A stretch of DNA of 64,000 bases from a virus (lineage: Duplodnaviria > Heunggongvirae > Uroviricota > Caudoviricetes), in the IMG/VR virus record IMGVR_UViG_3300037455_001096; one strand, given 5' to 3'. The notes under the pieces were generated by a model. It saw nothing but the letters and a program-made list of their open reading frames with translations. It made no database searches and was not told the DNA's origin. Positions 15,534 through 46,030 of this stretch are shown piece after piece; the first letter of the stretch is position 1; each line of letters begins with the position of its first letter. Position numbers and translations under genes: made by a program.

Positions 15534-15662
15534 ATAACAGATATTTTTTGTATTTATAAACCTTCGCTATAATATAATAAAAAATCGGAATTATCCTTTT
15601 TAGTCTTGTAAACAAAAAACGCAGGTTGTTTGCCTGCGTTTTTGCTTTGTTTGAATATTCAA

Positions 15663-28164: not shown

Positions 28165-28190
28165 ATGTGTTTGCACATTTCCGATTTTTT
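28164..28190 (+). terminator. candidate terminator hairpin
   Basis: aatgtg-tttg-cacatt palindrome followed by ccgattttttt. Confidence 0.35.
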
Positions 28191-28200
28191 TATTATATTG
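28183..28200 (+). promoter_or_regulatory. conserved intergenic motif GATTTTTTTATTATATTG (copy 1 of 3)
   Basis: Identical 18-mer recurs at 43854-43871. A near-copy (GAAATTTTTATTATATTAG) lies at 30477-30495. Confidence 0.3.
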
Positions 28201-28217: not shown

Positions 28218-28294
28218 TTGGTTGTTGATAACTTTGTTGATAACTTTTCTGAAAAAAATTTCACGGTGTATAAAAATTTTATATTTTTGCAGCG
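28218..28294 (+). promoter_or_regulatory. promoter/operator cassette copy A (tandem TTGTTGATAACTT x2 plus TATTTTTG -7 box)
   Basis: ttggttgttgataactttgttgataacttttctgaaaaaaatttcacggtgtataaaaattttaTATTTTTGcagcg upstream of gene 28328. Confidence 0.55.
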
Positions 28295-28327
28295 TCAAAA
28301 CAATCAAAATTCTAAAAACAATATGAT

Positions 28328-28600
28328 ATGGAAGATTTAGGAGCAAAAGAACTTATGGCGAAGTCAACGCCAATCGTCTGCGAGCAATGCGGATGTAACA
28401 GATTCATCCAAGTTACCTTGTTGAGAAAGGTGTCGAGATTGTTAATCGGGTCGCCAGAGGACGCGGTTATTCCCGTTCCGACATTCGCCTGCCAAGATTG
28501 CGGCAACATCAACAAGGAGTTCCTTCCGATTGGGATTTCGGAGGACGATAAGCAAGAGAAACCCCAACCCAAACCAAATTCCAACTTAATTCTCCCGTAA
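28328..28600 (+). CDS. zinc-ribbon protein (90 aa)
   Basis: Two CxxC pairs (CEQCGC ... CQDCGN). Confidence 0.5.
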   Translation: MEDLGAKELMAKSTPIVCEQCGCNRFIQVTLLRKVSRLLIGSPEDAVIPVPTFACQDCGNINKEFLPIGISEDDKQEKPQPKPNSNLILP

Positions 28601-28602
28601 TT

Positions 28603-29640
28603 ATGCTTCTCGGACTTGACGACATCACGCTTATCCCCGCACAAATGTCAACTGTGCGTTCAAGGTCGGAATGCGACCCGTATTATCACGAAAAAAGAAC
28701 GATGAACGGGAACTACCTGCCTTTGTTTGCCGCGCCTATGAGTTCGCTCATTGACACGAAAAACTACAACGTGTTCGAGCGTTGCGGCATACACACGGTG
28801 ATTCCGCGCAATGTTCCCGTTGATGACAGAATCTCGCTGTGCAAATATACGTTCTGCGCATTCGGCTTGCGGGAAATCGAGGAAAAATTCATCAACGACA
28901 CGCCGCTTGGATTTTGCAAAATGAGCGGTTGGAACGATGCCTATGTATGCATCGACATTGCCAACGGGCATATGGAGTATCTCTACCAACTCTGTATGAA
29001 ACTCAAAGACAGATACCAAGACCGTATCCACATTATGACGGGCAATGTCGCCAACCCGAACACATACGCCTATATCTGCGATGTGTATAACGGTGTTGTC
29101 GATTATATCCGCTTGGGTATCGGCGGCGGCTCTTGCTGCACAACCTCGGCTAACACGGCAATCCACTATCCTATGGCTACGCTGATAGCGCGGTGCTATG
29201 ACGAGCGTGCTTCCCGAAACGGTGAGGGTTGCCCGAAAATCATCGCTGACGGCGGCTTCGATTCATTCGACAAGATTATAAAGGCTCTCGCCTTGGGTGC
29301 TGACTATGTTATGCTCGGCAGCGTAATTGCGAAATCGGAGGAAGCCTGCGGGCAGACCTATGATGAGGAAAACCTCCGTGGCAGAAGAACGTTTCGCGAT
29401 TACTACGGTATGTCAACCAAGAAAGCGCAGAAGGAATTGGGTAACGCTGAACTGAAAACCTCGGAGGGCATCACCCGAAAGGTTATGGTCGAATACCCGA
29501 TTTCAAAATGGGTTGACAACTTCACATCGTATCTGCGTTCCGCTATGTCCTATATGGACGTGCGAAGCATCGGCGAGTTTGTCGGCGGTGTCGATTATTC
29601 AAGCATTTCCCCAAACGCATTCAAATCATTTTACAAATAA
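28603..29640 (+). CDS. GMP reductase (GuaC)-like enzyme of the IMPDH/GMPR TIM-barrel family (345 aa)
   Basis: DDITLIPAQMSTVRSRSECD, LPLFAAPMSSL, CIDIANGH...GIGGGSCCTT (catalytic Cys loop), IIADGGF and ADYVMLGS align with E. coli GuaC. The length matches a CBS-less GMPR. Confidence 0.8.
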   Translation: MLLGLDDITLIPAQMSTVRSRSECDPYYHEKRTMNGNYLPLFAAPMSSLIDTKNYNVFERCGIHTVIPRNVPVDDRISLCKYTFCAFGLREIEEKFINDTPLGFCKMSGWNDAYVCIDIANGHMEYLYQLCMKLKDRYQDRIHIMTGNVANPNTYAYICDVYNGVVDYIRLGIGGGSCCTTSANTAIHYPMATLIARCYDERASRNGEGCPKIIADGGFDSFDKIIKALALGADYVMLGSVIAKSEEACGQTYDEENLRGRRTFRDYYGMSTKKAQKELGNAELKTSEGITRKVMVEYPISKWVDNFTSYLRSAMSYMDVRSIGEFVGGVDYSSISPNAFKSFYK

Positions 29641-30476: not shown

Positions 30477-30495
30477 GAAATTTTTATTATATTAG
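30477..30495 (+). promoter_or_regulatory. conserved intergenic motif, variant copy (GAAATTTTTATTATATTAG)
   Basis: Near-copy of the 18-mer seen at 28183 and 43854. Confidence 0.25.
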
Positions 30496-31243: not shown

Positions 31244-32122
31244 ATGGGAGCAGGAAGTTGGACACCAATGGCATACGCTTCGTACTCTGTTGAAAACAAC
31301 AAGAGTTACGATGCTGACACGCATCGCGTGAGCGGTCAAGTCTATCACAAGTCCTCGTTGGACGATTCACTGAATCCGAGAATGTTTTCGATTCGTGAGT
31401 GTGTCGATTCGGAGGAGCATCCGAACACAATCCCCATTATCCTCGCGCTTGACGTGACGGGTTCTATGGGTCGCTCCTGCATTGAGACCGCTGAAGCGTT
31501 GGGTGTCATTATGAACGAATTGTACAAAAAGTACAAGGACATCGAGTTCTGCGTTATGGGTATCGGCGATTTGGCTTATGACGAAGCACCAATTCAGATG
31601 AGCCAATTCGAAAGCGATGTCCGTATCGCCGAGGCACTTGACAAAATCTATATGGAACAAGGCGGTGGCGGAAACGCCTACGAGAGTTATACCGCAGCGT
31701 GGTATATGGCTCTGCGCCGCACTTCCCTCGACCGTATCGCCAAGCAGGGCAAGAAGGGCATCATTATCACTATGGGTGATGAGCCGCTCAACCCCTATCT
31801 TCCCAAGAGTCAGTTGAATTACGCCATCAAAGGCAGCGAGCAGGGTGACATCGACACGAAGAAACTCTATGCAGAGGTTTCCGAGAAGTTTGATGTCTAC
31901 CACATCGCTGTTAATGATAGCGACAACTGCTACGCTCGTTATTCCGCGAGAATCAAAGATTCATTCGGTGAGATTCTCGGACAAAGACTGAAAGTATCAA
32001 CTGTTAACGAACTCGCAAACGCCATTACGGAGTGCATTGACGATTCCCTTGCAGGAGACTACGAGAATATCGCCGAGCAACCGACCAATATGGTGAATGA
32101 GGAAGGCGAAATCCATTGGTAG
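31244..32122 (+). CDS. von Willebrand factor A (VWA) domain protein
   Basis: PIILALDVTGSMG is a MIDAS-like motif. A strong AGGAGGA ribosome-binding site lies upstream. Confidence 0.6.
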   Translation: MGAGSWTPMAYASYSVENNKSYDADTHRVSGQVYHKSSLDDSLNPRMFSIRECVDSEEHPNTIPIILALDVTGSMGRSCIETAEALGVIMNELYKKYKDIEFCVMGIGDLAYDEAPIQMSQFESDVRIAEALDKIYMEQGGGGNAYESYTAAWYMALRRTSLDRIAKQGKKGIIITMGDEPLNPYLPKSQLNYAIKGSEQGDIDTKKLYAEVSEKFDVYHIAVNDSDNCYARYSARIKDSFGEILGQRLKVSTVNELANAITECIDDSLAGDYENIAEQPTNMVNEEGEIHW

Positions 32123-32123
32123 T

Positions 32124-33233
32124 ATGAACAACGCGAGAATAATAATCGGCGCGAACTACGGTGACGAGGGCAAAGGGACTGTCACCGCGCATTACGCGAA
32201 ACATTCTGACAACGCTCTTAACATTCTGACAAACGGGGGCGCACAACGTGGGCATTCCATTGTCAGCGAACACGGAAGTCATACGTTCCAGCATTTTGGT
32301 TCGGGGACTTACTACGGCGCGGCGAATTATTATTCTCGCTTTTTCATTCTCAATCCTATGCAGTTCGCAAAGGAGTACGATGAACTTGTTGTGAAACCGC
32401 CCGTAATCTATCGGCACGAGGAATGCCGTTGGAGTACGCCATACGATATGATGGCTAACGCCATCACGGAAGAGTTGCAGAGACGGCACGCTTCCTGCGG
32501 TATGGGTATTTGGAACACGATAAAGCGTTATCGGGAAACGGGTACGAGAACCTTCGACAGTTTTTGGAACTTGCCTACTCGTATGAAAATCGAGGAACTC
32601 TATAAGGTAAAGTCCTATTATGAGAAACAGATTACGATTCCGAATAATTGGAAACAAGTTTGGAATTCCGAGGTTCTTATCGTGAACTACCTTTACGACT
32701 GCAAGTTTATGTTCGAACACACGGAAGTCAACAAGGACGAGCGTGTGCTTGCAGAACTCTACACAGACCTTATCTTCGAGAACGGGCAGGGATTGCTGCT
32801 GCGCGACACGGGTAAGGACACTTACGACACCACGCCTTCGGATACGGGTTTGACCGATTCCGCAGTCATACTCTACAAGATGGGTGTTATGGACAGCAAC
32901 GGGAACGCTGTTGGTGATTCAAAAATAACCGCCCACTACGTGACACGCCCGTATCTGACGAGGCACGGTGACGGTGGTATGGAAAACGAATCAAACAGAA
33001 CGGCTCTGTCAAAAGATGTTATGTCAGACCGCACAAACCAATACAACAGATTCCAAGGCAAATTCCGTTACGGGAAACTTGACCTTGACAACTTGAAGAA
33101 AAGAATCGAGTTGAACACGGGCGTAGTTCCTTACGAACTTGAACTGACCCATTGTGACGAGATGGACAGATTGGGTGAGTTCAGACAACTGTTCGACAAA
33201 ATCAATGTGTATGACAAACCCGAAATCGAATGA
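32124..33233 (+). CDS. adenylosuccinate synthetase family enzyme (PurA-like; PurZ candidate), 369 aa
   Basis: MNNARIIIGANYGDEGKGT aligns with the PurA N-terminus and P-loop GDEGKGK. GGAQRGHS aligns with the GGHNAGHT catalytic His region. FENGQGLLLRDTGKDTYDTTPSDT aligns with [24 protein letters not shown]. The protein is shorter than bacterial PurA, as PurZ and archaeal-type enzymes are. Confidence 0.8.
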   Translation: MNNARIIIGANYGDEGKGTVTAHYAKHSDNALNILTNGGAQRGHSIVSEHGSHTFQHFGSGTYYGAANYYSRFFILNPMQFAKEYDELVVKPPVIYRHEECRWSTPYDMMANAITEELQRRHASCGMGIWNTIKRYRETGTRTFDSFWNLPTRMKIEELYKVKSYYEKQITIPNNWKQVWNSEVLIVNYLYDCKFMFEHTEVNKDERVLAELYTDLIFENGQGLLLRDTGKDTYDTTPSDTGLTDSAVILYKMGVMDSNGNAVGDSKITAHYVTRPYLTRHGDGGMENESNRTALSKDVMSDRTNQYNRFQGKFRYGKLDLDNLKKRIELNTGVVPYELELTHCDEMDRLGEFRQLFDKINVYDKPEIE

Positions 33234-34590: not shown

Positions 34591-35385
34591 CTACATATAG
34601 TATTCGATAATCACGCCGTTGTCCAATGTGACGTAGTTGTCGTTCAGTTCCTTTGCGTCAAGTTGGCTGAAGTCGTAACCAAGATTGACGAGTGTTTCGT
34701 AAGACAGTTCGTTGGTTTCTTCGGCTACTTCGAAGTATTCGTCCATTTCCTCGTTTTCGCCGTTGTAGTTGTTTTTCAGATAGGTAACAAGCCAAGACTG
34801 TCCGCTGAACTCGAATATCATATTCTCGATTAGTTCGTTTATGTCTTTCCAAGATGTGCATATTCCGTGGTCGAAATACTCGTTGTTTGACGGATAATCG
34901 TCAACAATTTCTTTCGCTTCTTTTAACGAAATGCCACAGTTTCTCGATATTATACCGAGTTCGTCTTTTTTCACTTTTTCGATGAGGCGGCTGTTTTTGT
35001 CTGACAGAAGCGTTATCACAATAGAATCCAACATTTCCTGCGGGCAACTGTTCAATTTGAATGCGTTGAACTGCTCTTCGCTCAACACGGTTTCGTAGTC
35101 ACTGTATTCCGCGTTTTTGTCGAGTCTGTTTGTGAAATTCGCGCCCTGCAACATTATCTGACCGTCAATGTCTGTCAGCAAGTTCCCGTTTTCTATTTTC
35201 ACGTATGAAACAGCGTCTCTGTCTTCCTGCGAGATGTTTTTGAACGCGAACACGCAGCCTATGTAGTTGGTGTAATATGACTTTGGCTTCGGTTTTTCAT
35301 CGGTATACTTTTTCAACTGTTCTTTTGTAATCGGATGTATGTCGAGTTTCTCGTTTATGAATTCTTGTGAATTGAGTATCTTCAT
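34591..35385 (-). CDS. leader-family protein with a non-LRR C-terminal domain (264 aa)
   Basis: N-terminus MKILNSQEFINEKLDIHPITKEQL, with an unrelated C-terminus. Confidence 0.65.
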   Translation of the reverse strand: MKILNSQEFINEKLDIHPITKEQLKKYTDEKPKPKSYYTNYIGCVFAFKNISQEDRDAVSYVKIENGNLLTDIDGQIMLQGANFTNRLDKNAEYSDYETVLSEEQFNAFKLNSCPQEMLDSIVITLLSDKNSRLIEKVKKDELGIISRNCGISLKEAKEIVDDYPSNNEYFDHGICTSWKDINELIENMIFEFSGQSWLVTYLKNNYNGENEEMDEYFEVAEETNELSYETLVNLGYDFSQLDAKELNDNYVTLDNGVIIEYYM

Positions 35386-35394
35386 AATTATGTA

Positions 35395-36147
35395 TTATTT
35401 TTCAATTTTCCCTTTAATCCAACTTGGTTTTTGTTTTGGTAATTTAAGGTTTGGGTTGTTTTTACAACGAAAATCCTTTCCGACTTCCTGCGGTGCGCCT
35501 TCAAGTGATGTCAGTTGGTTATCGCTGCAATCAAAATTCGCACCTACTTCCTGCGGTGCGCCTTCAAGTGAAGTCAGATTATTACTATTGCAAATAAAAC
35601 TCCCATCCACTTTATTCGGTGCGCCTTCAAGAGAGGTCAAATTATTGTCACTACAATAAAAACCTCCACTGACTTCCTGCGGTGAACCTTCAAGTGATGT
35701 CAGTTGGTTTTCGCTGCAATCAAAAAGACCGCCGACTTCCTGCGGTGCGCCTTTAAGCGAGGTTAGTTGGTTGTATTTACACCAAAAATCATCGCCAACT
35801 TCCTGCGGTGCGCCTTCAAGCGATGTCAGTTGGTTGTAACCGCAATCAAAATAACCACCGACCTTATGCGGTGCGCCTTCAAGACTTGTTAATCCAACAT
35901 CCGAACAATCAAAATCACCTTTGATTATTCCAAATTTGATTTTTAATTTACCATCTTTATCGACTACACGGGAATCAATGGTAATGTCGCGGTCACAGTC
36001 GTATAGTTTTGATAATTTGTTCCACACAAGTACGTATTGGTCGATGAATGACTTAACCATCGGCTCATCAAACCTTTTGTCGTTTTTGCCAATAGGTTTG
36101 ATGTTCAGTTTCTCGTTGACATATTCTTGTGTATTGAGTATTCTCAT
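35395..36147 (-). CDS. leader-tagged LRR-like repeat protein (250 aa)
   Basis: MRILNTQEYVNEKLNIKPIGK leader, the YDCDRDI...GKLKIKFGIIKGDFDC linker, then ~22-aa repeats N(Q)LTSLEGAPQEVGxxFxCxx. Confidence 0.75.
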   Translation of the reverse strand: MRILNTQEYVNEKLNIKPIGKNDKRFDEPMVKSFIDQYVLVWNKLSKLYDCDRDITIDSRVVDKDGKLKIKFGIIKGDFDCSDVGLTSLEGAPHKVGGYFDCGYNQLTSLEGAPQEVGDDFWCKYNQLTSLKGAPQEVGGLFDCSENQLTSLEGSPQEVSGGFYCSDNNLTSLEGAPNKVDGSFICNSNNLTSLEGAPQEVGANFDCSDNQLTSLEGAPQEVGKDFRCKNNPNLKLPKQKPSWIKGKIEK

Positions 36148-36148
36148 A

Positions 36149-36982
36149 TCAGTTGATAAATTTTCCTCCTATTCGTTTTGGCTTTCCGCTCAAAGTCCGC
36201 AAAGGGTTGTCGCTGCAATCAAAAAGACCGCCTACTTTCTGCGGTGCGCCTTTGAGTGTTGTCAGACTGTTGTATTCGCATTTGAAATCGCCATTGACCT
36301 CAACGGGTGAGAACTCCAACGATTTTAGTTCGTTGCCGCTGCAATCGAAGTTTCCGCCTATTTTCTGCGGTGCGCCTTTTAGTGACACCAAATCGTTTGC
36401 GCAGCAGTTGAAGTTTCTTTTCACTTCCTGCGGTGCGCCTTCGAGTGTTTTTAGGTTGTTTCTGTGGCAGTAGAAACTGCCGCCTATCTCTTTCGGCGAA
36501 CCCGACAATGACTGCAAGTGCGAGTCGTTGCAGTTGAAGTCGTTTCCAACGTATTCGGGTGCGCCTTCGAGCGACAGCAGATTGTTTTTCTCGCAATGGA
36601 AGTCAAGACCCACGTATTCGGGTGCGCCTTCAAGCGTTTGTAAAAGGTTGCCCGCACAATGGAAATTTCTTTTCACGTATTTCGGTGCGCCTTTCAGAGA
36701 AACAAGGTTCTGCTCGCTGCAAAAGAAACTTCCGTTCACCACGCCGAAGTTTATCTTGAACCCGTTGCCGTCCTTTCTCACAATGCTTTTGCCCGCGTAC
36801 ACATCGTTGTCGCAGTCGTATGCCTGCGTTGTCGGATTGTATTTTAAGCGGTATGTTTTTATGAATGACTCACATTCGGGGTCGGTGTTTCTTCCACTGC
36901 CCATTTTATCGAGAATTCCTTTTGGTATAGGCTTGATGTCCAATTTTTCGGATGTGAGTTCGTATGTTTTCAGAATCTTCAT
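36149..36982 (-). CDS. leader-tagged LRR-like repeat protein (277 aa)
   Basis: MKILKTYELTSEKLDIKPIPK leader and a repeat array L(Q/V)SL(K/E)GAP(K/E)YVxxxFxCxxN. Confidence 0.75.
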   Translation of the reverse strand: MKILKTYELTSEKLDIKPIPKGILDKMGSGRNTDPECESFIKTYRLKYNPTTQAYDCDNDVYAGKSIVRKDGNGFKINFGVVNGSFFCSEQNLVSLKGAPKYVKRNFHCAGNLLQTLEGAPEYVGLDFHCEKNNLLSLEGAPEYVGNDFNCNDSHLQSLSGSPKEIGGSFYCHRNNLKTLEGAPQEVKRNFNCCANDLVSLKGAPQKIGGNFDCSGNELKSLEFSPVEVNGDFKCEYNSLTTLKGAPQKVGGLFDCSDNPLRTLSGKPKRIGGKFIN

Positions 36983-36984
36983 AT

Positions 36985-37590
36985 CTAATTGAATGTTACT
37001 TCTCCTATCATTTCACCGCCAATCCAACTCGGTTTGTCTTTCGGCATAACGAGTCTGTCACCGAAACGATTGTAGTTGTCTTTGCAATAGAAGTTCCCGC
37101 CAACGAATTCGGGTGCGCCTTCAAGGGATGTGATGTTGTTGTGTTCACAGTTGAAGTCGCCAATGACTGTCTTTGGTGCGCCTTTTAGGTTTGTCAGATA
37201 GTTGTGGCTGCAATTGAAGTCATTCGTTTCCTGCGGTGCGCCGACAAGGGAAGTCAGATTGTTGTTGTCGCAGTAAAACGTACCGCCTACTTCGATTGGT
37301 GCGCCTTCAAGCGAAATCAGTTTGCATAGACTGCAATCAAACCAACCCTTTACCACGCCGAATTGTATGGTAAACTTCCCGTCCTTTATATCGTGTTCCG
37401 TCAGACTGACATTGCCATCGCAGTCGTAACGCCTTGTTTTTTTGTTCCAAACAAGGTGGTTGTTTTTGATGGTTGCCCTCGTTTTTTCGTCAACTTCGGG
37501 TTCGTCTGACGAGAACCTTTTATCGTCTTTTGAAATTGGCTTTATGTCGAGTTTTTCGCTTATATACTCCTCTGTGTTCAGTATTTTCAT
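36985..37590 (-). CDS. leader-tagged LRR-like repeat protein (201 aa)
   Basis: Start set at the internal MKILNTEEYISEKLDIKPISK, which overlaps the upstream stop as TAATG. Confidence 0.7.
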   Translation of the reverse strand: MKILNTEEYISEKLDIKPISKDDKRFSSDEPEVDEKTRATIKNNHLVWNKKTRRYDCDGNVSLTEHDIKDGKFTIQFGVVKGWFDCSLCKLISLEGAPIEVGGTFYCDNNNLTSLVGAPQETNDFNCSHNYLTNLKGAPKTVIGDFNCEHNNITSLEGAPEFVGGNFYCKDNYNRFGDRLVMPKDKPSWIGGEMIGEVTFN

Positions 37591-38492
37591 TATGCTTCTG
37601 TTGTATTGTCTATTTTGTCGCCAATCCAATCGGGTTTTTCCTTTGGCAAAACAAGATTCGGGTTGCCTGCGCACCAAAATATGAATTTGACTTTTTGCGG
37701 TGCGCCTTCAAGGGACGTCAGTTGGTTGTTTCTGCAATCGAAACTGTTTGTCACTTTTCTCGGTGCGCCTTCAAGGGACGTCAGTTGGTTGTTTCTGCAA
37801 TCGAAACTGTTGACTTTTTGCGGTGCGCCTTCAAGGGATGTCAGATTATTGTCGCTGCAATGGAAACTTGCTCCTATTTTTTGAGGTGCGCCTTTGAGGT
37901 TTGTGAGTTCATTGTTTGAACAGTTGAAATGCCTGCTCAACTCTTTCGGTGCGCCTTCGAGCGATTTGAGCAAATTGTGTGAACATATATAGTTTTCCCC
38001 TACTTTTTGCGGTGAATATTTGAGTGATTCCAATTTGTTGTGGCTGCAATTGAAATACCCGTTTACCGTTTGCGGTGCGCCATCAAGTGATTTGATTGCG
38101 TTGTATGAACAATCAAAGTGCAATCCTATTGCTTTGGGGATTCCATTGAGCGATGTCAAGTTGTTTTTGTCGCAATAGAAACTTCCATTGACTTCTGTGG
38201 GTGCGCCGTACAGTGTCGTCAGCCCGCATTTGCTGCATTCAAAATCCCCGCTGACTACACCGAATTTTATCGTAAGCCTGCCGTCTTTCACAATACGGTT
38301 GTCAACAAACACGTTGGTGATTGAATCATAACGCATAGTCGCTTTGTTGTAAACAAGTCTGAACTCGTCAATAAATGACTGTGCATTATGGTCTATTATT
38401 TTTTCATTGGAATACTTGTCAAGCCATTCTTTTGATTTTGGCTTTATATTCAATTTCTCTACTATATATTCCTCTGTGTTCAGTATTTTCAT
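37590..38492 (-). CDS. leader-tagged LRR-like repeat protein (300 aa)
   Basis: MKILNTEEYIVEKLNIKPKSK leader and repeats NQLTSLEGAPRKV. Confidence 0.75.
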   Translation of the reverse strand: MKILNTEEYIVEKLNIKPKSKEWLDKYSNEKIIDHNAQSFIDEFRLVYNKATMRYDSITNVFVDNRIVKDGRLTIKFGVVSGDFECSKCGLTTLYGAPTEVNGSFYCDKNNLTSLNGIPKAIGLHFDCSYNAIKSLDGAPQTVNGYFNCSHNKLESLKYSPQKVGENYICSHNLLKSLEGAPKELSRHFNCSNNELTNLKGAPQKIGASFHCSDNNLTSLEGAPQKVNSFDCRNNQLTSLEGAPRKVTNSFDCRNNQLTSLEGAPQKVKFIFWCAGNPNLVLPKEKPDWIGDKIDNTTEA

Positions 38493-38494
38493 AT

Positions 38495-39385
38495 CTATTT
38501 TTGTATTTTACCCTTAACCCAACTCGGCTTTGGTTTTTTTGATTGGATTTTTACATTGATGCACCAAAAATCCCCGCAAATCTCTTGCGGTGCGCCGTCA
38601 AGGGACTCCAAGTCATTGTCGTTACAATAGAAATCACCGTTGATTTTTATTGGCGAGCCTTTAAGCGATGTCAGTTGATTGCCGCTGCAACTGAAATCCC
38701 CGCCAACCTCTTGCGGTGCGCCTTCAAGCGATGTCAATGAGTTGTTGCTGCAACTGAAGTCACCCCCGACTTTTTGCGGTGCGCCTTCAAGCGAGGTCAA
38801 TATATTATTGTCGCAACTGAAATCCCCTTTGACCTCTTGCGGTGCGCCTTCGAGCGATGTCAGTTTGTTTTTTAGAACACTGATGTCGCCCCCAATATCT
38901 TGTGTTATGCCTTTTAGCGATTTTATACTATTGTCATAAAACCAAAAACTGCCTCCGACTTTTTTCGGTGCATACTTGAACGACACTATTTGGTTATGTT
39001 CGCAATTGAAATTGTTGCCTATGATTTTTGGAACGAATTTAAGACTCTTTAATTTATTATTATTGCAGTTAAAATTGCCAAGCACTTCTGTTGGTGCGCC
39101 GTATAACGTGGTCAATTCACAGAGTTCGCAATCGAAGTTACCTTTTATCACGCCGAATTTTATTGGTAATTTCCCGTTTGTTGTATATCGTCCATCAATT
39201 GCGACATCATTTTCGCAATCATATCGTCTTGTTTTCGGATTCCAACGAAGTTTGTTATCCGATATGAACATTCTTACATTCACGTCATCGATTGTCGGCT
39301 CGCAACAAAACCGTTTGTCCCCTTTGAGAATCGGCTTGATGTTCAGTTTTTCGTTTATGTAGTCTTGGCTCTTTAATATTTTCAT
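38495..39385 (-). CDS. leader-tagged LRR-like repeat protein (296 aa)
   Basis: MKILKSQDYINEKLNIKPILK leader and repeats LTSLEGAPQEVGGDFSCS. Confidence 0.75.
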   Translation of the reverse strand: MKILKSQDYINEKLNIKPILKGDKRFCCEPTIDDVNVRMFISDNKLRWNPKTRRYDCENDVAIDGRYTTNGKLPIKFGVIKGNFDCELCELTTLYGAPTEVLGNFNCNNNKLKSLKFVPKIIGNNFNCEHNQIVSFKYAPKKVGGSFWFYDNSIKSLKGITQDIGGDISVLKNKLTSLEGAPQEVKGDFSCDNNILTSLEGAPQKVGGDFSCSNNSLTSLEGAPQEVGGDFSCSGNQLTSLKGSPIKINGDFYCNDNDLESLDGAPQEICGDFWCINVKIQSKKPKPSWVKGKIQK

Positions 39386-39903: not shown

Positions 39904-40143
39904 ATGGCTATCAGAATAACAGAGATACTTGGTACGGACAATATGAACAATTCCCGTATCACCATAAACAACAACTTCAAGACAATCGCGGAAACCATCA
40001 ACCGATTGGACAATCAGATTCACACTGAAATCGCGATGGGTTCAGTTTCCGCAGAGAACCTCACGTTGAGCAACGGATTGAAGATTGGCAACACCGAACT
40101 CACGGAAGACCAACTTCAGCAACTGCTTACTTTGATACAATAA
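39904..40143 (+). CDS. small hypothetical protein (79 aa)
   Basis: Protein-like composition. It is the first gene of the plus block after the divergent region. Confidence 0.4.
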   Translation: MAIRITEILGTDNMNNSRITINNNFKTIAETINRLDNQIHTEIAMGSVSAENLTLSNGLKIGNTELTEDQLQQLLTLIQ

Positions 40144-40314
40144 TGAATTGGTAAACAACAAGATAGAAAAAATGCGAAATTTTTTTCATTTTTTCCAAAC
40201 AAAAACATCGGATATTTATTATATACCATTGTAAGACATTTGAAATTATTATAACAAGCGCGTTAGTTATTATATTTTGTTTTTAGTTTTAATCTTAAAA
40301 AATTTTTAGAAGTT

Positions 40315-41241
40315 ATGAATTTTGACGAATTGTTTAATATGGAAGAAGTTTCCATAGAAGATGTTTCAACAGAACCCGTTAGAAACAGAGTAATTGACGA
40401 AAACCTCTACACAATCAACCTCGCGGATGCCGCAGACGGCGTTTACAAAGCGAGAGTGAGATTTCTCCCCAACCCAGCGGACATCAAGAAATCCATCATT
40501 GCGAAGTACAACTATTGGCTTACCGATTCAAACGGCGACAACGGTATTTCCGTTGACGACCCGACCACCATTGGCGAAAAGTCTCCAATCAACGAACTGT
40601 ATTGGAAACTGAAGAAGTCACCCAACGTTGTTGACCAAAACATCGCCGATGAGTTCCTCAAGAGAAACCGTTATTTCTTCTCACTCGTCCAAATCATCAA
40701 GGACGACCAACACCCCGAACTCGTGGGTCAAGTGAAAGTGTTCAGATACGGTATCAAAATCAAGGAGAAAATCGACCAAGAGTTCAACGATGAGGACGGC
40801 GGCAATCCGTTCAACATTATGAGCGGTCGCGAGTTCAAACTTGAAGTCAAGAAAGTTGGCGGATATCAAAACTATGACGCTTGCAAGTTCGCAGGCAGCA
40901 AGCAACCCGTTTCCATCAAAGGCAAGCCTCTCACCAAGACCCCTGCCGACAAGAAACGCCTCGAATCTCTGTACGAGAACGCACCCGACCTTGACAATTA
41001 CACGTTCAAGCCTTGGAGCGCGGAACTGACCGAGCAGGTCAACGAGCGTTTGAGAACTTTCGGCAAGAACGGCAAGGCTGTCGGTACATCAACCGCCGCT
41101 CCCAAATCGGCTGTCGAAGCCGCTATGAAGCAGGAGGAGGAAGAAGATGTTGACAAAATGATGGAAGATAACGATGTTGACGGAATCCCCTACAGCGACA
41201 GCGGGGATGACGATGACTTGCTCGCAGGTATCGACATTTAA
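40315..41241 (+). CDS. putative single-stranded DNA-binding protein (308 aa)
   Basis: The highly acidic C-terminal tail (EEEEDVDKMMEDNDVDGIPYSDSGDDDDLLAGIDI) is typical of phage SSBs. The body is unassigned. Confidence 0.4.
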   Translation: MNFDELFNMEEVSIEDVSTEPVRNRVIDENLYTINLADAADGVYKARVRFLPNPADIKKSIIAKYNYWLTDSNGDNGISVDDPTTIGEKSPINELYWKLKKSPNVVDQNIADEFLKRNRYFFSLVQIIKDDQHPELVGQVKVFRYGIKIKEKIDQEFNDEDGGNPFNIMSGREFKLEVKKVGGYQNYDACKFAGSKQPVSIKGKPLTKTPADKKRLESLYENAPDLDNYTFKPWSAELTEQVNERLRTFGKNGKAVGTSTAAPKSAVEAAMKQEEEEDVDKMMEDNDVDGIPYSDSGDDDDLLAGIDI

Positions 41242-41252
41242 CCATAGTCCAA

Positions 41253-41281
41253 AGCACCCGATTCAAGTCGGGTGCTTTTAA
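41253..41281 (+). terminator. rho-independent terminator
   Basis: agcacccg-attcaagt-cgggtgct stem, then TTTTAA. Confidence 0.5.
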
Positions 41282-41300
41282 CCCATTTAATTTATTCAAT

Positions 41301-42032
41301 ATGAGCGAAAACAACGAATTGAAAGAAAAACTCGAAACTGTTCAAACAGAGGTGAATGAAGAATCTCCAAACTTGAACGAACAATCCGAGACTGTTCCAC
41401 CCGCCGAGAGCGAGCAACCCGAAAAGGTTGAAAACGCTGACGGAGAAAAGGCTACTCTCCCGAAGAAAAGCGAACTGCTTAAAGAGCAAATCGAATTGGA
41501 GAAACAGTATGACAGTGAATCAGCCGCTATGCTTGAGGACACATACAATGTGAAGTTCGGCACAAAGGGCGCATTCGACAGAATGATGAAGTACTTGGAG
41601 AAGGACGTTGAGTTCGACCACAGTACCGCCACGGGTCTCGCGCTGCTTTACTCCAATATGAGGCAGCAGAAACCGTTCACCCGCGAAGCCGATTGGAACG
41701 GCGAGGTGCAGTTGAAAACATCAAGTTGCTTGATGCTGTGGAAATTCTTGATGGCTCACAAGGGTCACGGCTTTTGGGAGGCAAAGGCATTCTTGGAGAC
41801 TATCCAATTGGTCGGTCAAGACATATCGAAGTCCATCAACACAATCAACGAGAAACAGACTGCTCTGCGCGGAATCCACGACAGACTGAATGTCATCTAC
41901 AACAAACTCGATTCCAACGAATATGAGAACGACCTTACCGAAGAAGAGGAGAAGGCTCTCCTCGAAAGCAGCAAGGAAGTAATCAAGAACGAGGAAGAAC
42001 TGAACAACGAGGTCAATCCCTCTGTTGACTAA
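41301..42032 (+). CDS. acidic hypothetical protein (243 aa)
   Basis: Glu-rich N-terminus with a coiled-coil character. Confidence 0.5.
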   Translation: MSENNELKEKLETVQTEVNEESPNLNEQSETVPPAESEQPEKVENADGEKATLPKKSELLKEQIELEKQYDSESAAMLEDTYNVKFGTKGAFDRMMKYLEKDVEFDHSTATGLALLYSNMRQQKPFTREADWNGEVQLKTSSCLMLWKFLMAHKGHGFWEAKAFLETIQLVGQDISKSINTINEKQTALRGIHDRLNVIYNKLDSNEYENDLTEEEEKALLESSKEVIKNEEELNNEVNPSVD

Positions 42033-42055
42033 CCGAAAAATAAAAAAATTCAACT

Positions 42056-42223
42056 ATGAAGAAAGTATTGTTTATCGCATTGTTCGCAATGTGCTTGCTT
42101 TTCGCCTCTTGTGGGACGAGAACCAATGAAAATGAAACCGTAGTAGGCGACACAATTGCTGCCGTCATCGAAGCCGACACTCTGCTTTGTGCAGACACGG
42201 TTTTGACCGACACACTTGAGTAA
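42056..42223 (+). CDS. small lipoprotein (55 aa); absent from the ORF track because it is under 60 aa
   Basis: MKKVLFIALFAMCLLFASCGTR has a lipobox (LFASC). A strong terminator follows. It beats the two overlapping minus-strand track ORFs. Confidence 0.5.
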   Translation: MKKVLFIALFAMCLLFASCGTRTNENETVVGDTIAAVIEADTLLCADTVLTDTLE

Positions 42224-42239
42224 CTGAAATTGGTTTTTG

Positions 42240-42268
42240 AAGCCCGTCATCTGACGGGCTTTTTTATT
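42240..42268 (+). terminator. rho-independent terminator
   Basis: aagcccgtc-atct-gacgggctt stem plus TTTTTATT. Confidence 0.7.
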
Positions 42269-42293
42269 ATAAATATATGTAACATATATTGCT

Positions 42294-42731
42294 ATGCTTG
42301 GGTTTGAAGAATTTGTTTCATTGCAGGAAAAACTGAAAATAAAGCCAATATCAAAGGAACGTCTCGACTCCTATTCGGACGGCTATGCTTTTTTCGAGCC
42401 AAGTATGGTGAAAATGTTGGAAGATTTGAAAACAAGCAGACATACTTTCGAAGACTACGCTTTGTATGCCGAATATCCCTCTGGCGAATATAACATATAC
42501 GATTTGCCGAAAAACGAAAACGATATGAAGATTATTTGGAACGATGTATCCAAAAGGTTGAAACAAGGTGACTGCCACAAAGATACAAAGGGAACGTATT
42601 ACCTTTGTATAAAGTTGTTTGTGTTAGACCGAAAGAGCAGCCGTTTTGATTCCGTCAGTTGCGGCATTTGGACTTATTATTCAAAGGGAAGGTTTGAATG
42701 CGAATACGTGAACAACGACTTGTCAAAATAA
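42294..42731 (+). CDS. leader-family protein (145 aa) on the opposite strand to the arrays
   Basis: MLGFEEFVSLQEKLKIKPISKERLDSY leader with a non-LRR C-terminus. Confidence 0.6.
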   Translation: MLGFEEFVSLQEKLKIKPISKERLDSYSDGYAFFEPSMVKMLEDLKTSRHTFEDYALYAEYPSGEYNIYDLPKNENDMKIIWNDVSKRLKQGDCHKDTKGTYYLCIKLFVLDRKSSRFDSVSCGIWTYYSKGRFECEYVNNDLSK

Positions 42732-42756
42732 ATCGCAATATAGCAGAAGCAAAAGG

Positions 42757-42786
42757 AAGCCCGTCAATTTGGCGGGCTTTTTTGTT
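42757..42786 (+). terminator. rho-independent terminator, directly abutting promoter cassette B
   Basis: aagcccg-tcaatttgg-cgggctt stem plus TTTTTTG. The stem sequence resembles that of the terminator at 42240. Confidence 0.6.
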
Positions 42787-42858
42787 GTTGATAACTTTGT
42801 TGATAACTTTTTCAGAAAAAATGTTGCGCGTATAAAAAAGTTTTGTATTTTTGCAGCG
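42782..42858 (+). promoter_or_regulatory. promoter/operator cassette copy B
   Basis: ttgttgttgataactttgttgataactttttcagaaaaaatgttgcgcgtataaaaaagttttgTATTTTTGcagcg. The -7 box is at 42846-42853, and the ATG of gene 42878 lies 25 nt downstream. Confidence 0.6.
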
Positions 42859-42877
42859 TAATTAAAAACGATAAGCA

Positions 42878-43288
42878 ATGAGACAAGCAAACGAAATTTA
42901 CGCCTGCGGGACAAAGGTAAAGAAATTGTCCGAAAAGCCGTTCAAGAGCGGTTTGGTTTTCAACACTGTGAAATCCGTCACGGAGCATCCGCATAAAATC
43001 GACCCCGAAACGAACAAGGGTGTTCCTGCCTACACGTTCTTCGAGGACGACAGCGTTGTCGAAGCGGCGGCTGTCAAATTAGTCAATGGCTTTGAATACT
43101 CGCACAATGCCGACAAGTATTTCTTGGACAGCATCGTTAAGCGGCTTACGTACAATCCCAAATACAAGGATACACCCATTACCGCCGCCATCAAGGGCAA
43201 CTGCGTCCGACAGTTGGTTGATACCATACATTCGGACAAAGTGAACGGGCAGAAATTGGTGCTTCTTGGTACTATGATTGTCGGTTAA
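42878..43288 (+). CDS. hypothetical protein (136 aa); paralog of 43899..44117
   Basis: MRQANEIYACGTKVKKLSEKPFKSGLVFNTVKSV...FFEDDSVVE is shared with the 72-aa paralog. Confidence 0.55.
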   Translation: MRQANEIYACGTKVKKLSEKPFKSGLVFNTVKSVTEHPHKIDPETNKGVPAYTFFEDDSVVEAAAVKLVNGFEYSHNADKYFLDSIVKRLTYNPKYKDTPITAAIKGNCVRQLVDTIHSDKVNGQKLVLLGTMIVG

Positions 43289-43354
43289 TAACTTTGTTGA
43301 TAACTTTTCAGAAAAAATGTTGCGCGTATAAAAAAGTTTTGTATTTTTGCGGCG
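43277..43354 (+). promoter_or_regulatory. promoter/operator cassette copy C (overlaps the end of the upstream gene)
   Basis: ...ttaataactttgttgataacttttcagaaaaaatgttgcgcgtataaaaaagttttgTATTTTTGcggcg. The -7 box is at 43342-43349. Confidence 0.6.
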
Positions 43355-43373
43355 TAATCAAAAACCAAAGGAT

Positions 43374-43835
43374 ATGACTTCAATAACGAACTATCAGAAT
43401 GACGGTGCTAATTGGCAGGCTCGCGGTGTTCTCGCTTGCATCTTGGGATGTATGTATGAAATCCAATCACCTAAAGTTTGGGCGTATGGCAATGTCGAGT
43501 GTCCGAAGAAATACGATTTTGATATTTGTGTCGGCAGGTTCGAAAATTGCAGGGAGCAGGGTTACGTGTTCACTTTGTACGAGAGCGGCAGACAACTTAT
43601 TCATTACGCTGTGTACGAACATCGCAACAGCGACAATCTGATTGTACTAATCAGCGAAACCAAGACCATAAACACGCCGACACCAGACCAAATGTTCAAC
43701 GGTCGAGGCAAGTATGATTACAACAAGAGTTTTTCTTGCGGTAAGATAATGGAATGCGCCAAGTTTATTCTTGACGATATGTCGGACGTGCTTGCTGACA
43801 ATTACGTCAAGCGAATGACAAAAAACAAAAAATAA
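43374..43835 (+). CDS. hypothetical protein (153 aa)
   Basis: The track start at 43347 is TTG and lies inside the promoter cassette. ATG 43374 (MTSITNYQ...) is preferred. Confidence 0.55.
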   Translation: MTSITNYQNDGANWQARGVLACILGCMYEIQSPKVWAYGNVECPKKYDFDICVGRFENCREQGYVFTLYESGRQLIHYAVYEHRNSDNLIVLISETKTINTPTPDQMFNGRGKYDYNKSFSCGKIMECAKFILDDMSDVLADNYVKRMTKNKK

Positions 43836-43853
43836 TTTATTTGTTCTCGTATT

Positions 43854-43871
43854 GATTTTTTTATTATATTG
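43854..43871 (+). promoter_or_regulatory. conserved intergenic motif GATTTTTTTATTATATTG (copy 2)
   Basis: Identical to 28183-28200. It sits between stop 43835 and ATG 43899. Confidence 0.3.
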
Positions 43872-43898
43872 TTTTACGACAAATCAAAAAGCAAAGAA

Positions 43899-44117
43899 AT
43901 GGAACAGACAATAGGCATTTATGGAATCGGCACAAAAGTCAGAAAGACGAACAGCCGCCCGTTTAAATCGGGGCTTATGGTGAACACGGTCAAGTCGGTT
44001 GTGGCTCACCCTTACAAATTCAACCAAGTGAGTAAACTTCACGCGCCCGCCTACGAGTTTTTCGAGGACGACAGCATTGTTGAAACGGGTTCTGTAATCG
44101 CTGTGTTTAACCAATAA
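43899..44117 (+). CDS. hypothetical protein (72 aa); short paralog of 42878..43288
   Basis: MEQTIGIYGIGTKVRKTNSRPFKSGLMVNTVKSV...FFEDDSIVE. The track start is TTG; ATG 43899 is preferred. Confidence 0.5.
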   Translation: MEQTIGIYGIGTKVRKTNSRPFKSGLMVNTVKSVVAHPYKFNQVSKLHAPAYEFFEDDSIVETGSVIAVFNQ

Positions 44118-44127
44118 ATCGTAATAT

Positions 44128-44442
44128 ATGGAATCAAGCAAAATCACAAAAGGAGTGGAATTGATTGCGGCGGAACGAATCCGCCAAATCGAAAAGGAAG
44201 GCTTTGACGGCGTTCACGATGACGAATACAAGAACAATGAATTGGTGTTGGCTGCTATGTGCTACGCCGAGCCGAACAGATGTGGAGATGGCGTGCCGCC
44301 CGCGTTCCCTTGGGATGCGTGTTGGTGGAAACCTTCGCCGAATGACCGAATCAAGGAACTCACCAAGGCGGGCGCACTTATCGCCGCAGAGATTGACAGA
44401 CTGATTCGTTCAGACGCAAACAATTGGAAATTGTGTCAATAA
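44128..44442 (+). CDS. hypothetical protein (104 aa)
   Basis: Small helical protein (ELIAAERIRQIEKEGFDGVHDDEY ... ALIAAEIDRLIR). A nucleotide-pyrophosphohydrolase-like fold is possible but was not verified. Confidence 0.45.
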   Translation: MESSKITKGVELIAAERIRQIEKEGFDGVHDDEYKNNELVLAAMCYAEPNRCGDGVPPAFPWDACWWKPSPNDRIKELTKAGALIAAEIDRLIRSDANNWKLCQ

Positions 44443-44494
44443 CAATATCAAACAATTCAATAAACCTTATTTATTAACTAAAAACCAAAAAATT

Positions 44495-46030
44495 ATGCAG
44501 TTAGTTATTTTAATCGCAGCAGCAGTTATCGTGTTAGTCCTCTTCATCGCCGTGTGCTATGTGAAAGCACCCCCGAAAGATGCCTACATCATCAGCGGTC
44601 TTTCCAAACAGCCACGAATCCTCATCGGCAAGGGTGGATTCAGAATCCCAGGGTTGGAACGAGTGGACAAGGTGTTCCTCGGTCAGACATCAGTGGATAT
44701 CAAGACATCAGTCCCCGTGCCTACCAACGACTTTATCTCTGTTATGGTGGATGCCGTGGCAAAGATTAGGGTAATCAACAACCCCGATGGCATTAGGTTG
44801 GCGGCAAAGAACTTCCTCAATATGGCGGAAAAGGAAATCGCCTCGCAGATTCAAGACTCCTTGGAGGGTAATATGCGTGAGATTATCGGTACGCTTGACC
44901 TCAAGTCATTGAACATCGACCGTGACGGTTTCTCCGACCAAATCGCCAAGAAAGCGGCAAGCGATATGGCAAAACTCGGTATCGAGGTGATTTCCTGCAA
45001 CATTCAGAACATCACCGACAACGAGGGGCTTATCAAGAACTTGGGTGCTGACAACACGTTCAAAATCCGCAAGGAAGCCGCTATCACCAAGGCGCAGGCT
45101 GAACGCGACATTCAGATTGCCGAGTCGGTAGCAGCCAAGGAAGCCAACGATGCCCGCGTTGAGAACGAAACCATTATCGCCGAGAAGAACAACGCGCTTG
45201 CCATCAAGAAAGCCAATCTGAAAGTGTCCGAGGATACGCAGAAGGCGAAGGCTGATGCCGCCTACGAAATCCAAAAGCAGGAACAGCAGAAAACCGTCAA
45301 CGAGAAAACGGTTGAAGCCGAGGCTGCGAAGATGATTCTCACCCAAGAGCGTCAGAAGGAAATTAACGCCAAGGCTGTCGAGGCTGAAACCGAGAAAGCC
45401 CGCCGTGAGCAGGAACTGACCGCCGAGCAGGTCAAGATTCAACAGAACAAACTTGACGCTGAAGTCCAAAAGCAAGCCGATGCCGAGAAGTACCAAAAGG
45501 AAATCGCCGCCGCCGCTCAACTCGAACAGAGAAAGCGCAACGCCGAGGCAGAGGCATACGAAGCCGAGCAACGCGCCCGTGCCGTGAAAGCGCAGGCAGA
45601 AGCCGAGCAGTATCGTATGGAGCAGGAGTCCATCGGTAAGAAGAAACTCGCCGATGCAGCCGCCTACGAAATCGAGCAGAAGGGTGTCGCCGAGGCAGCA
45701 GCCATCGAGAAGAAAGGTATCGCCGAGGCAGAGGCTATGCGCAAGAAAGCCGAAGCGTTCAAGCAGTACGGTGACGCTGCAAAGGCGCAGATGGTCATCG
45801 AGAAACTTCCCGAAATCGCCAAGAGCGTTGCCGAGCCTATCAGTTCAATCAAGGACGTGAGAATCTACGGCGGCAGCGGCGAAGGTATCTCCCAACTCTC
45901 TGGTCAAGTTCCCGCCGTCATCAAACAGACGATGGACACCGTATCAGACGCAACGGGCGTGGATATGAGCGAAATCGTGAAACAGTCCACCCTTGAAAAC
46001 GCCGTCAAACGTGTCGGTGACAAGGAGTAA
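44495..46030 (+). CDS. flotillin / SPFH (band-7) domain protein (511 aa)
   Basis: N-terminal transmembrane helix, an SPFH-like core, then a long Ala/Glu/Gln/Lys-rich coiled coil with EA-type repeats typical of flotillins (YqiK/FloT type). Confidence 0.75.
   Translation: MQLVILIAAAVIVLVLFIAVCYVKAPPKDAYIISGLSKQPRILIGKGGFRIPGLERVDKVFLGQTSVDIKTSVPVPTNDFISVMVDAVAKIRVINNPDGIRLAAKNFLNMAEKEIASQIQDSLEGNMREIIGTLDLKSLNIDRDGFSDQIAKKAASDMAKLGIEVISCNIQNITDNEGLIKNLGADNTFKIRKEAAITKAQAERDIQIAESVAAKEANDARVENETIIAEKNNALAIKKANLKVSEDTQKAKADAAYEIQKQEQQKTVNEKTVEAEAAKMILTQERQKEINAKAVEAETEKARREQELTAEQVKIQQNKLDAEVQKQADAEKYQKEIAAAAQLEQRKRNAEAEAYEAEQRARAVKAQAEAEQYRMEQESIGKKKLADAAAYEIEQKGVAEAAAIEKKGIAEAEAMRKKAEAFKQYGDAAKAQMVIEKLPEIAKSVAEPISSIKDVRIYGGSGEGISQLSGQVPAVIKQTMDTVSDATGVDMSEIVKQSTLENAVKRVGDKE

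Follow-up and report, generated by a model that had tools for sequence, protein, structure and literature searches.

A dispersed cassette of huge phages with plausible Bacteroidota hosts: a probable host-type promoter carrying paired candidate DnaA boxes

The DNA considered here is a 64,000-nucleotide (nt) stretch of the Caudoviricetes record IMGVR_UViG_3300037455_001096 (the window), in which a cassette of about 75 bp, formed by two tandem 9-bp boxes and a Bacteroidota-type -7 element, occurs three times (cassettes A, B and C). The reading favoured, with some reserve, is that of a dispersed promoter cassette belonging to a clade of ~400-kb Bacteroidota phages, which would be read by the host RNA polymerase and wired to the host replication initiator DnaA. 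A preliminary description of the same DNA had regarded the cassette as a local, thrice-repeated feature; comparison with related phages points instead to a dispersed, genome-wide family of putative promoters extending across a clade of huge phages.

The cassette family and its predicted promoter architecture

All three cassettes lie on the plus strand (Table 1), at the places already indicated in the preliminary description, and are co-oriented, each preceding an unrelated open reading frame (ORF) by 20-34 nt. Counted from the end of the C(A/G)GCG that follows the -7 element, the start codon is reached after 20 nt in B and C and after 34 nt in A, and not after the 25-35 nt first reported. Over about 79 nt, B and C are 92% identical, A and B 83%, and A and C 79%. 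This similarity starts sharply at the first box and stops at the start codon, and the proteins encoded downstream of A, B and C (90, 136 and 153 amino acids, aa) are mutually unrelated; duplication of a single gene together with its upstream region, which had been raised as the scenario most damaging to the idea of a regulatory cassette, is therefore discarded. The 13-mer TTGTTGATAACTT has five exact occurrences in the window, every one within the cassettes, and eight when up to two mismatches are allowed, against 2.7 expected and with none of 100 shuffles reaching eight, so that the repetition does exceed chance. Its 9-mer core, TGTTGATAA, likewise has five occurrences, and neither strand carries it outside the cassettes (block-shuffle mean 0.71). 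The tandem of exact 13-mers described for every copy is present in A and B, whereas C retains a single exact 13-mer, its first unit (GGTTAATAA) having two mismatches and overlapping the TAA stop codon (43286-43288) of the upstream ORF; the period of the repeat is 12 bp (the 9-mer plus 3 bp) and not 13, and the two 13-mers share one T. Similarly, the 37-nt middle segment quoted for all copies is found in B and C, whereas A reads TTTTCTGAAAAAAATTTCACGGTGTATAAAAATTTTA. In both A and C, 37 nt separate box 2 and its following C from the -7 element.

Bacteroidota promoters have been reported to follow the consensus TAHHTTTG at -12 to -5, with transcription starting 4-5 nt downstream, and to carry AT-rich motifs at -18 and -28 that are better developed than the -33 element (PMC6847099; PMC2483708). 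The TAnnTTTG-type -7 box that had been noticed earlier is present in all three copies as TATTTTTG. Similarly to promoters of the sigma-ABfr type (-33 TTTG, -7 TAnnTTTG/TAHHTTTG), this element has no G at -10 or -9, is preceded in B and C by a TTG 19 nt upstream and in general by a spacer that is AT-rich near -18/-28, and is followed by an A-rich leader without a Shine-Dalgarno sequence and, shortly downstream, by a co-oriented gene. The cassettes differ from those promoters in the TTG directly 5' of the -7 element, in the conserved C-4, G+1, T+2 and A+4, in the T5/A-tract and the two upstream boxes, and in that the whole 75 bp is copied near-verbatim at dozens of sites. Judged by its letters, the combination of -7 element and AT-rich spacer is near-ideal for Bacteroidota. 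Eight TAnnTTTG sequences are intergenic in the window, six of them in the cassettes, where the junction between the two repeat units (TAACTTTG) itself matches the pattern in all three copies, and one at 54785. For this last site, upstream of the ORF starting at 54874, a box similar to those of the cassettes had been proposed; the -7 box and GCGGCG are indeed held in common, and the site provides the fourth exact match to TANNTTTGCRGCG in the window, the other three being the cassettes, whereas the tandem boxes and all remaining cassette sequence are missing. A scan for E. coli-type sigma-70 promoters gave no excess, and none in the cassettes. Searches against Rfam (gathering threshold) and for tRNAs, covering the window and the Bacteroidales loci described below, returned no Rfam match and no tRNA, on which grounds a non-coding RNA explanation was rejected for both.

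The window has a dense phage-like gene map and 45% G+C. Its large proteins have only distant relatives, in uncultured huge phages of 462-735 kb (LR7565xx, LR745206), in the Prevotella Lak phages and in jumbo phages of Flavobacterium, Tenacibaculum and Chryseobacterium (Flavobacteriia). Among the deposited phages of INPHARED, megablast with positions 40000-46000 and blastn with the cassette found no match; the window is syntenic, at ~72-79% nucleotide identity, with a 413-kb contig, IMGVR_UViG_3300031994_000001 (loci L073 and L005). Because the relatives are Lak/LR-type huge phages, jumbo phages of Flavobacteriia and this syntenic contig, a Bacteroidota host is plausible and the -7 element relevant.

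The exact tandem 23-mer was found at nine viral loci, and the pattern box 2-N(25-55)-TATTTTTGC at 58, most of which are full cassettes and some of which are chance single-box matches inside coding sequence. The 413-kb contig has pattern matches at ~25 sites across 20-395 kb, and five or six further contigs were also matched. Once duplicates and chance coding matches were dropped, at least 43 non-redundant two-box cassettes remained; box 2 and the C after it are separated from the -7 element by 38 nt in 29 copies, by 37 in 11 and by 39 in three. The element TATTTTTG, itself part of the retrieval pattern, is invariant in 29/29 aligned relatives. Among 45 relatives, a co-oriented ORF follows every cassette with readable downstream sequence and starts 7-111 nt (mostly 19-43) past the -7 box, the corresponding distances in the window being 24, 24 and 38 nt. 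Another arrangement was observed in a 31-kb viral contig (IMGVR_UViG_3300030294_000125), where, on the minus strand at ~13608, the box pair lies 15 nt before a TATATTTG box and overlaps the -33 position; since the spacing is of 15 nt only, the pair seems to be used at more than one promoter geometry.

Comparison with the syntenic contig also indicates how the cassettes evolve. At the site orthologous to B, terminator and cassette together are ~95% identical between the window and L005, while the ORF upstream of B has only 33% amino-acid identity to its L005 counterpart. The gene behind this cassette has been replaced, L005 encoding a protein with HTH_17 and RNA-polymerase alpha C-terminal (alpha-CTD) domains where the window has the 136-aa ORF and then cassette C. 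The terminator-promoter junction previously suggested for copy B is borne out by the 14-pair stem with its T-run (RNA fold -22.7 kcal/mol) and is conserved in L005; copies A and C have no such stem-loop. At the site orthologous to A, L073 retains the flanking genes and the intergenic motif TTTTTATTATATT (see below) without a cassette; a cassette accompanied by an additional ORF is found there instead behind the GMP-reductase-like gene. It appears that cassettes are kept near-constant, by selection and/or gene conversion, while exchange, gain and loss affect the neighbouring genes. Close to cassette A, on its upstream side (27853-28164), lies a gene for a T5orf172/MUG113-domain (GIY-YIG-like) protein. 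A link between the two, through homing-endonuclease-like mobility, was considered and rejected, because the relative has the gene but no cassette, and they are taken to be independent.

Taken together, the co-oriented ORFs, the rigid box-to--7 spacing, the near-ideal core and the ~95% conservation at orthologous sites despite diverged flanks make it very probable that the cassette is a host-type promoter. Of the promoter/operator reading in the preliminary description, the promoter part is thus strongly supported by comparative evidence; any operator role is putative.

The tandem boxes as candidate DnaA sites

In the window and in the relatives, the boxes are two head-to-tail copies of TGTTGATAA (equivalent to TTATCAACA) separated by 3 bp, a linker that varies more than any other part of the repeat (CTT, CTC, CTA, GAT or CCG); the mutated counterpart defined for the box is TGTTGCGCA. 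TTATCAACA matches eight of the nine positions of TTATCCACA, deviates at position 6 from the relaxed E. coli consensus TTATNCACA and fits the DnaA-box consensus of T. tengcongensis, TTATCNACA (PMC1888806), neither consensus coming from Bacteroidota. With the T. tengcongensis system it has been reported that a two-box oligonucleotide, TGTTGATAA-gcc-TGTGGATAA (2Box3D; 3-bp spacing, the second box being canonical), supports cooperative DnaA binding at 8 nM, and that at 60 degrees C the protein leaves a single box unbound (PMC1888806). T5-like phages have likewise been described as carrying TTATCAACA-type boxes in pairs with a 3-bp gap (bioRxiv 10.1101/866236).

A search of bacterial and archaeal genomes totalling 596 Gb gave 24 matches to the exact 23-mer, against ~0.02 expected by our own estimate assuming uniform base composition. 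In two Firmicutes metagenome-assembled genomes (MAGs; L011 and L021) dnaA follows it directly, and in the first of them it belongs to a run of canonical boxes at 3-bp spacing (TGTGAATAA...TTTTACACA-aag-TTATTCACA-ttt-TGTTGATAA-ctt-TGTTGATAA); canonical boxes with this spacing surround it at other loci too, several TGTGGATAA/TTATCCACA boxes near yidC (L017) and four TTATCCACA in Sporomusa L029 and in L019. In Bacteroidota, ribonucleotide reductase (RNR) genes form a further group of contexts: three tandem units precede the class II enzyme in seven Bacteroidales MAGs (L023, 4985-5015 on the minus strand, and six others), and the 23-mer is found upstream of the class Ia genes nrdB-nrdA in Psychroflexus (L030) and of the class III gene nrdD at two loci (L032 and L015). 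It also precedes nrdR (L018) and mraZ (L024). Wherever a gene follows the pair in these bacterial loci, the TGTTGATAA orientation points towards it, and in four of them (L013, L015, L032 and L027) the pair lies 37-39 nt before a TAnnTTTG box, the phasing seen in the phages. Control of nrdAB and dnaA by DnaA is established in E. coli.

When two DnaA proteins were used as tblastn queries, neither the window nor 530 kb of DNA from related phages yielded a DnaA homolog; a phage-encoded DnaA was rejected on this basis, and the binder would accordingly be the DnaA of the host. The bacterial contexts, the literature precedents and the lack of a phage DnaA in the DNA searched are the reasons for which the "13-mer repeat" is read as a pair of variant DnaA boxes bound by host DnaA, an assignment to which we give about even weight. 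The repeat had been presented earlier as the site of a dimeric regulator; head-to-tail DnaA boxes 3 bp apart, cooperatively bound by the host initiator, would explain it better than a generic dimer. Two other bacterial factors were considered. NrdR recognises a 16-bp palindrome, acaCwAtATaTwGtgt, unlike the repeats upstream of the RNR genes (TGTTGATAAC), which moreover occur at dnaA, and an NrdR box was therefore rejected; a candidate IHF site on the reverse strand (TATCAA-N5-TTA, one base off WATCAANNNNTTR) was set aside.

The bacterial occurrences suggest that Bacteroidota may have a DnaA-type regulon with the variant box TGTTGATAA, covering RNR classes I, II and III and mraZ. No published account of such a regulon in Bacteroidota was found, and a literature search on the motif or on phage promoters of this kind returned no prior description, TTATCAACA and TGTTGATAAC leading to the DnaA-box papers on T5 and T. 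tengcongensis. To our knowledge, a DnaA-box pair attached to a whole promoter class, and mirrored by the RNR promoters of Bacteroidota hosts, is undescribed.

A possible mechanism can be outlined as follows. Host RNA polymerase with its housekeeping sigma factor (sigma-ABfr type) would recognise the near-consensus -7 element and the AT-rich spacer, and the T and A tracts (-50 to -37) may act as a UP-like element. At the boxes, centred near -68 and -56, DnaA would be bound in fixed helical phase, probably as cooperating molecules of the ATP form, and would modulate initiation; activation is favoured because the boxes lie upstream and the phasing is common to host promoters. The genes so controlled would probably be early phage genes, coupled to the state of host replication and growth, and the more than 50 boxes per genome could also serve as a DnaA sink. 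Because the copies are near-identical, they may in addition serve as recombination junctions through which small genes are swapped, gained or lost. A bolder version, possible but held only tentatively, would have an entire temporal promoter class (per genome ~25-30 promoters, together bearing over 50 high-quality boxes) wired to DnaA as a licensing activator of early phage transcription, and/or the amplifying phage DNA acting as a datA-like sink that strips DnaA from oriC and from the nrd/dcw promoters; it implies a Bacteroidota DnaA regulon preferring TGTTGATAA (three RNR classes, mraZ).

Alternative explanations and related systems

Several points weigh against a promoter class tied to DnaA. 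The cassette copies were retrieved by patterns containing box 2 and TATTTTTGC, so conservation at those positions is inflated by ascertainment; box 1, the T tract (T-50 to T-46), the TTG at -15 to -13 and the start-site bases G+1, T+2 and A+4 are outside the retrieval pattern and yet nearly invariant. Most copies also come from a few related contigs, in which shared ancestry or gene conversion adds to the identity. To the departure from the relaxed E. coli consensus at position 6 must be added that the off-consensus T of TGTTGATAA is invariant in the phage copies, never alternating with the canonical G, which fits a binder whose optimum is TGTTGATAA, and that the boxes of the class II RNR promoters stand at a different distance from the promoter. 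Finally, the assignment of the cassette class to early genes, regarded as probable, draws on promoter type and gene content: host-type promoters precede regulators and takeover-type genes.

It is commonly phage factors that control phage early-promoter classes, and the same promoter might bear in its tandem boxes the operator of a phage-encoded regulator, switching it on or later off, the likeness to DnaA boxes being due to coincidence or mimicry. The protein combining HTH_17 and RNA_pol_A_CTD domains, whose gene immediately follows a cassette in three contigs, one of these cassettes being the ortholog of B, is a candidate for this role, and the invariant non-canonical T suggests a binder tuned to exactly TGTTGATAA. 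Such a factor cannot, however, explain why the identical 23-mer occurs in the same orientation at bacterial dnaA, in DnaA-box clusters and at RNR promoters, the 37-39-nt phasing to the -7 box is also bacterial, and no HTH/alpha-CTD homolog is present in the window, which has three cassettes and is part of a ~400-kb genome; a phage regulator is accordingly thought rather unlikely. It is less probable still that the boxes work without any dedicated factor, either as an extended recognition or architectural region for RNA polymerase (UP-like, bent DNA) or as a second upstream promoter. The rigid spacing, the A/T tracts directly after the boxes and the fit of TAACTTTG to the -7 consensus would all agree with this, but the linker is the least conserved part and becomes CTC or CCG, which abolishes TTTG, the junction has no preceding -33 element or AT-rich spacer, and the same pair occurs in dnaA/oriC regions of Firmicutes, where the polymerase does not use TAnnTTTG.

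Replication origins typically contain DnaA boxes and direct repeats, and the cassettes are gained and lost between relatives, so that origin iterons or remnants of mobile elements, placed upstream of genes by accident, were also considered. Each site has only two repeats, and there are ~25 dispersed sites in one genome, in fixed orientation and at fixed distance to the -7 box and the ORF start; this is not the arrangement of iterons, in which at least three repeats adjoin an initiator gene as well as an AT-rich unwinding region, at one or few loci per genome. No adjacent initiator gene was seen in the annotated regions, and no terminal inverted repeats were seen by eye in the alignments, no formal repeat or target-duplication scan having been made. 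This origin of the cassettes is very improbable. A functionless recent local duplication could be suspected for B and C, which are 495 bp apart and 92% identical, but the coding sequences on both sides are unrelated, copy A is at a distance of 14.5 kb, other contigs contain at least 43 non-redundant copies, and an orthologous copy is 95% conserved beside a gene of only 33% identity; this possibility is refuted, and hardly any likelihood is left to it.

The favoured reading, a host-type promoter carrying DnaA boxes, combines elements known from different systems. With tandem DnaA boxes, such as those of the T. tengcongensis oriC and of dnaA/nrd promoters, the cassette shares the head-to-tail arrangement, the 3-bp linker, the 9-mer TGTTGATAA and the same 23-mer upstream of dnaA/RNR genes; it differs in that the pair stands at a fixed phase on ~25 phage promoters per genome, and not at one origin or cell-cycle gene, and in that DnaA binding is predicted from sequence. 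The T5 injection-stop region has DnaA/DnaA* pairs that are likewise phage-borne, TTATCAACA-type and 3 bp apart, whereas its eight boxes lie in one non-coding region, were proposed to hold the DNA at the membrane, and are neither promoter-linked nor dispersed (bioRxiv 10.1101/866236). Sites for a cell-cycle or developmental regulator of the host, by which infection is tuned to host physiology, are also found as Spo0A boxes in the early units of phi29 and Nf (PMC2731898). Compared with the cassette, a stereotyped genome-wide module whose binding is deduced, phi29/Nf and lambda pR have few sites in small genomes, with binding shown experimentally. Stimulation of lambda pR is a known activity of DnaA.

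As regards organisation, a close parallel is offered by the promoter-early stem-loop (PeSL) cassettes of T4-like phages, which are also short, near-identical composite promoter or terminator-promoter sequences dispersed among small variable genes; as with PeSLs, near-identical copies of the present cassette border the segments in which closely related phages differ by gene replacement or indel (PMC2839356, PMC4122927). The differences lie in the sequence and the host promoter type, in the stem-loop, present only at copy B and its ortholog, and in the boxes, PeSLs not having been described with initiator boxes; the phage lineage, related to the huge Lak/LR75-type phages, is unrelated to T4, and only the logic is common to both. 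In both its aspects, that of a host-type phage promoter and that of a junction for PeSL-like shuffling, the cassette belongs to known kinds.

Neighbouring genes, other motifs and biological meaning

Table 1. Coordinates of the cassettes and associated features in the window, with the layout of the cassette relative to the predicted G start site
Feature	Position	Strand	Remarks
Cassette A	28223-28299	+	predicted transcription start ~28294
Cassette A, box 1	28223-28231	+	TGTTGATAA
Cassette A, box 2	28235-28243	+	
Cassette A, -7 element	28282-28289	+	TATTTTTG
Cassette B	42786-42863	+	predicted transcription start ~42858
Cassette B, box 1	42786-42794	+	
Cassette B, box 2	42798-42806	+	
Cassette B, T-tract	42808-42812	+	
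Cassette B, A-tract	~42815-42821	+	
Cassette B, -33-like TTG	42824-42826	+	19 nt ahead of -7 element
Cassette B, -7 element	42846-42853	+	TATTTTTG
Cassette C	43283-43359	+	predicted transcription start ~43354
Cassette C, box 1	43283-43291	+	degenerate, GGTTAATAA
Cassette C, box 2	43295-43303	+	
Cassette C, -7 element	43342-43349	+	
Intrinsic terminator of the upstream unit (ORF 42294-42731)	42753-42783	+	14-pair stem then T-run; abuts cassette B
-7-type element without boxes	54785-54797	+	TATATTTGCGGCG; divergent intergenic region upstream of ORF 54874-56394
ORF after cassette A	28328-28600	+	90 aa, first gene after the cassette; 63% amino-acid identity to L073 counterpart
ORF after cassette B	42878-43288	+	136 aa
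ORF after cassette C	43374-43835	+	153 aa (phrog_6319)
TTTTTATTATATT, exact copies	28187-28199, 30481-30493, 43858-43870	+	
TTTTTATTATATT, exact copies	12459-12471, 15571-15583	-	
TTTTTATTATATT, variants	3166, 39812, 40213, 40264, 42261, 17935, 54825		
Layout: box 1	-72 to -64		TGTTGATAA
Layout: C + variable 2-nt linker	-63 to -61		
Layout: box 2	-60 to -52		TGTTGATAA
Layout: C	-51		
Layout: T5 tract	-50 to -46		
Layout: A tract	-43 to -37		
Layout: weak TTG	about -34 to -32		TTG-N19-TATTTTTG in B and C; A without clear TTG
Layout: A-run	-23 to -18		conserved
Layout: T-run	-17 to -14		conserved
Layout: TTG	-15 to -13		directly 5' of -7 element
Layout: -7 element	-12 to -5		TATTTTTG
Layout: C	-4		
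Layout: G, T, A	+1, +2, +4		
Layout: A-rich leader	3' of start site		ATG ~20-45 nt downstream; no Shine-Dalgarno

Cassette A heads a nucleotide-metabolism operon that runs to 34102 and encodes an IMPDH/GMP-reductase-like protein (28603-29640) and a PurZ/PurA-like adenylosuccinate synthetase (32097-33233; PurZ PHROG phrog_1211, E = 1.4e-40), and that may serve purine or 2-aminoadenine-type nucleotide metabolism. The unit of cassette C includes an SPFH/flotillin-like protein (44495-46030). In the relatives, the genes found behind cassettes encode the HTH_17 + alpha-CTD protein (three contigs), a weak sigma-factor match (three loci), a DnaQ-like exonuclease, a J-domain (DnaJ) protein and a GmrSD_N protein. 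The first of these, of ~280 aa, is always directly behind a cassette (L004, 597-1424, minus strand; L079, 9676-10530, plus strand; L005, 6601-7173, plus strand) and is conserved; its N-terminal part is an HTH_17 domain, its middle part weakly resembles sigma-70 region 4, and its C-terminal part is an alpha-CTD (PF03118, E = 5e-15 to 2.5e-16).

The second intergenic motif, TTTTTATTATATT (also as TATAAATATATA), has five exact copies in the window and 20 with up to two mismatches, against 4.2 expected. Many genes of either strand have it in front of them, one copy lies a short way ahead of cassette A, and L073 conserves it as well. It looks like a separate promoter class, possibly phage-specific, and since intergenic regions other than those of the cassettes carry this distinct recurrent motif, at least two promoter classes are suggested. 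The gap that follows the cassette C gene holds a small ORF (43899-44117) whose product shares 55% identity with the N-terminal 66 aa of the protein encoded behind cassette B; TTTTTATTATATT precedes this ORF, so that the paralog would be under the other promoter type.

Other repeats were observed in the window. Large paralogous gene arrays with 63-nt (21-aa) repeats occupy 15663-16469, 34591-39385 and 46461-52567 (minus strand), with a conserved ...GCGGTGCGCCTTCAAG... core on the plus strand and related repeats at three loci of the relatives (L003, L005 and L048); they look like leucine-rich-repeat (BspA-like) families with conserved N-termini. GGN-rich repeats with a 9-nt period (56690-57511 and 63844-64000) correspond to collagen-like Gly-X-Y stretches in the ORFs 56400-57956 and 62823 onward. 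A non-coding gap of 349 nt (62258-62606), part of which is 70-86% identical to intergenic DNA at three related loci (L043, L072 and L080), gave no tRNA and no Rfam match.

Hardly anything has been learnt so far about transcription in the huge phages that infect gut and rumen Bacteroidota, all of them uncultivated; the cassette offers a concrete definition of one promoter class in these viruses, which delimits a probable early regulon including sigma-like and alpha-CTD-like regulators. It is also a marker motif for the phage clade and its gene-shuffling junctions in metagenomes, and a compact candidate strong promoter for Bacteroides/Prevotella engineering. The box pair upstream of class I, II and III RNR genes and of mraZ constitutes a lead on DnaA-dependent cell-cycle regulation in Bacteroidota. 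If the boxes do bind DnaA, they would provide a genome-scale case of a virus reading or draining the replication initiator of its host, going beyond the single-site precedents of lambda, T5 and phi29; and if DnaA licensing holds true, infection would proceed only in replication-competent hosts.

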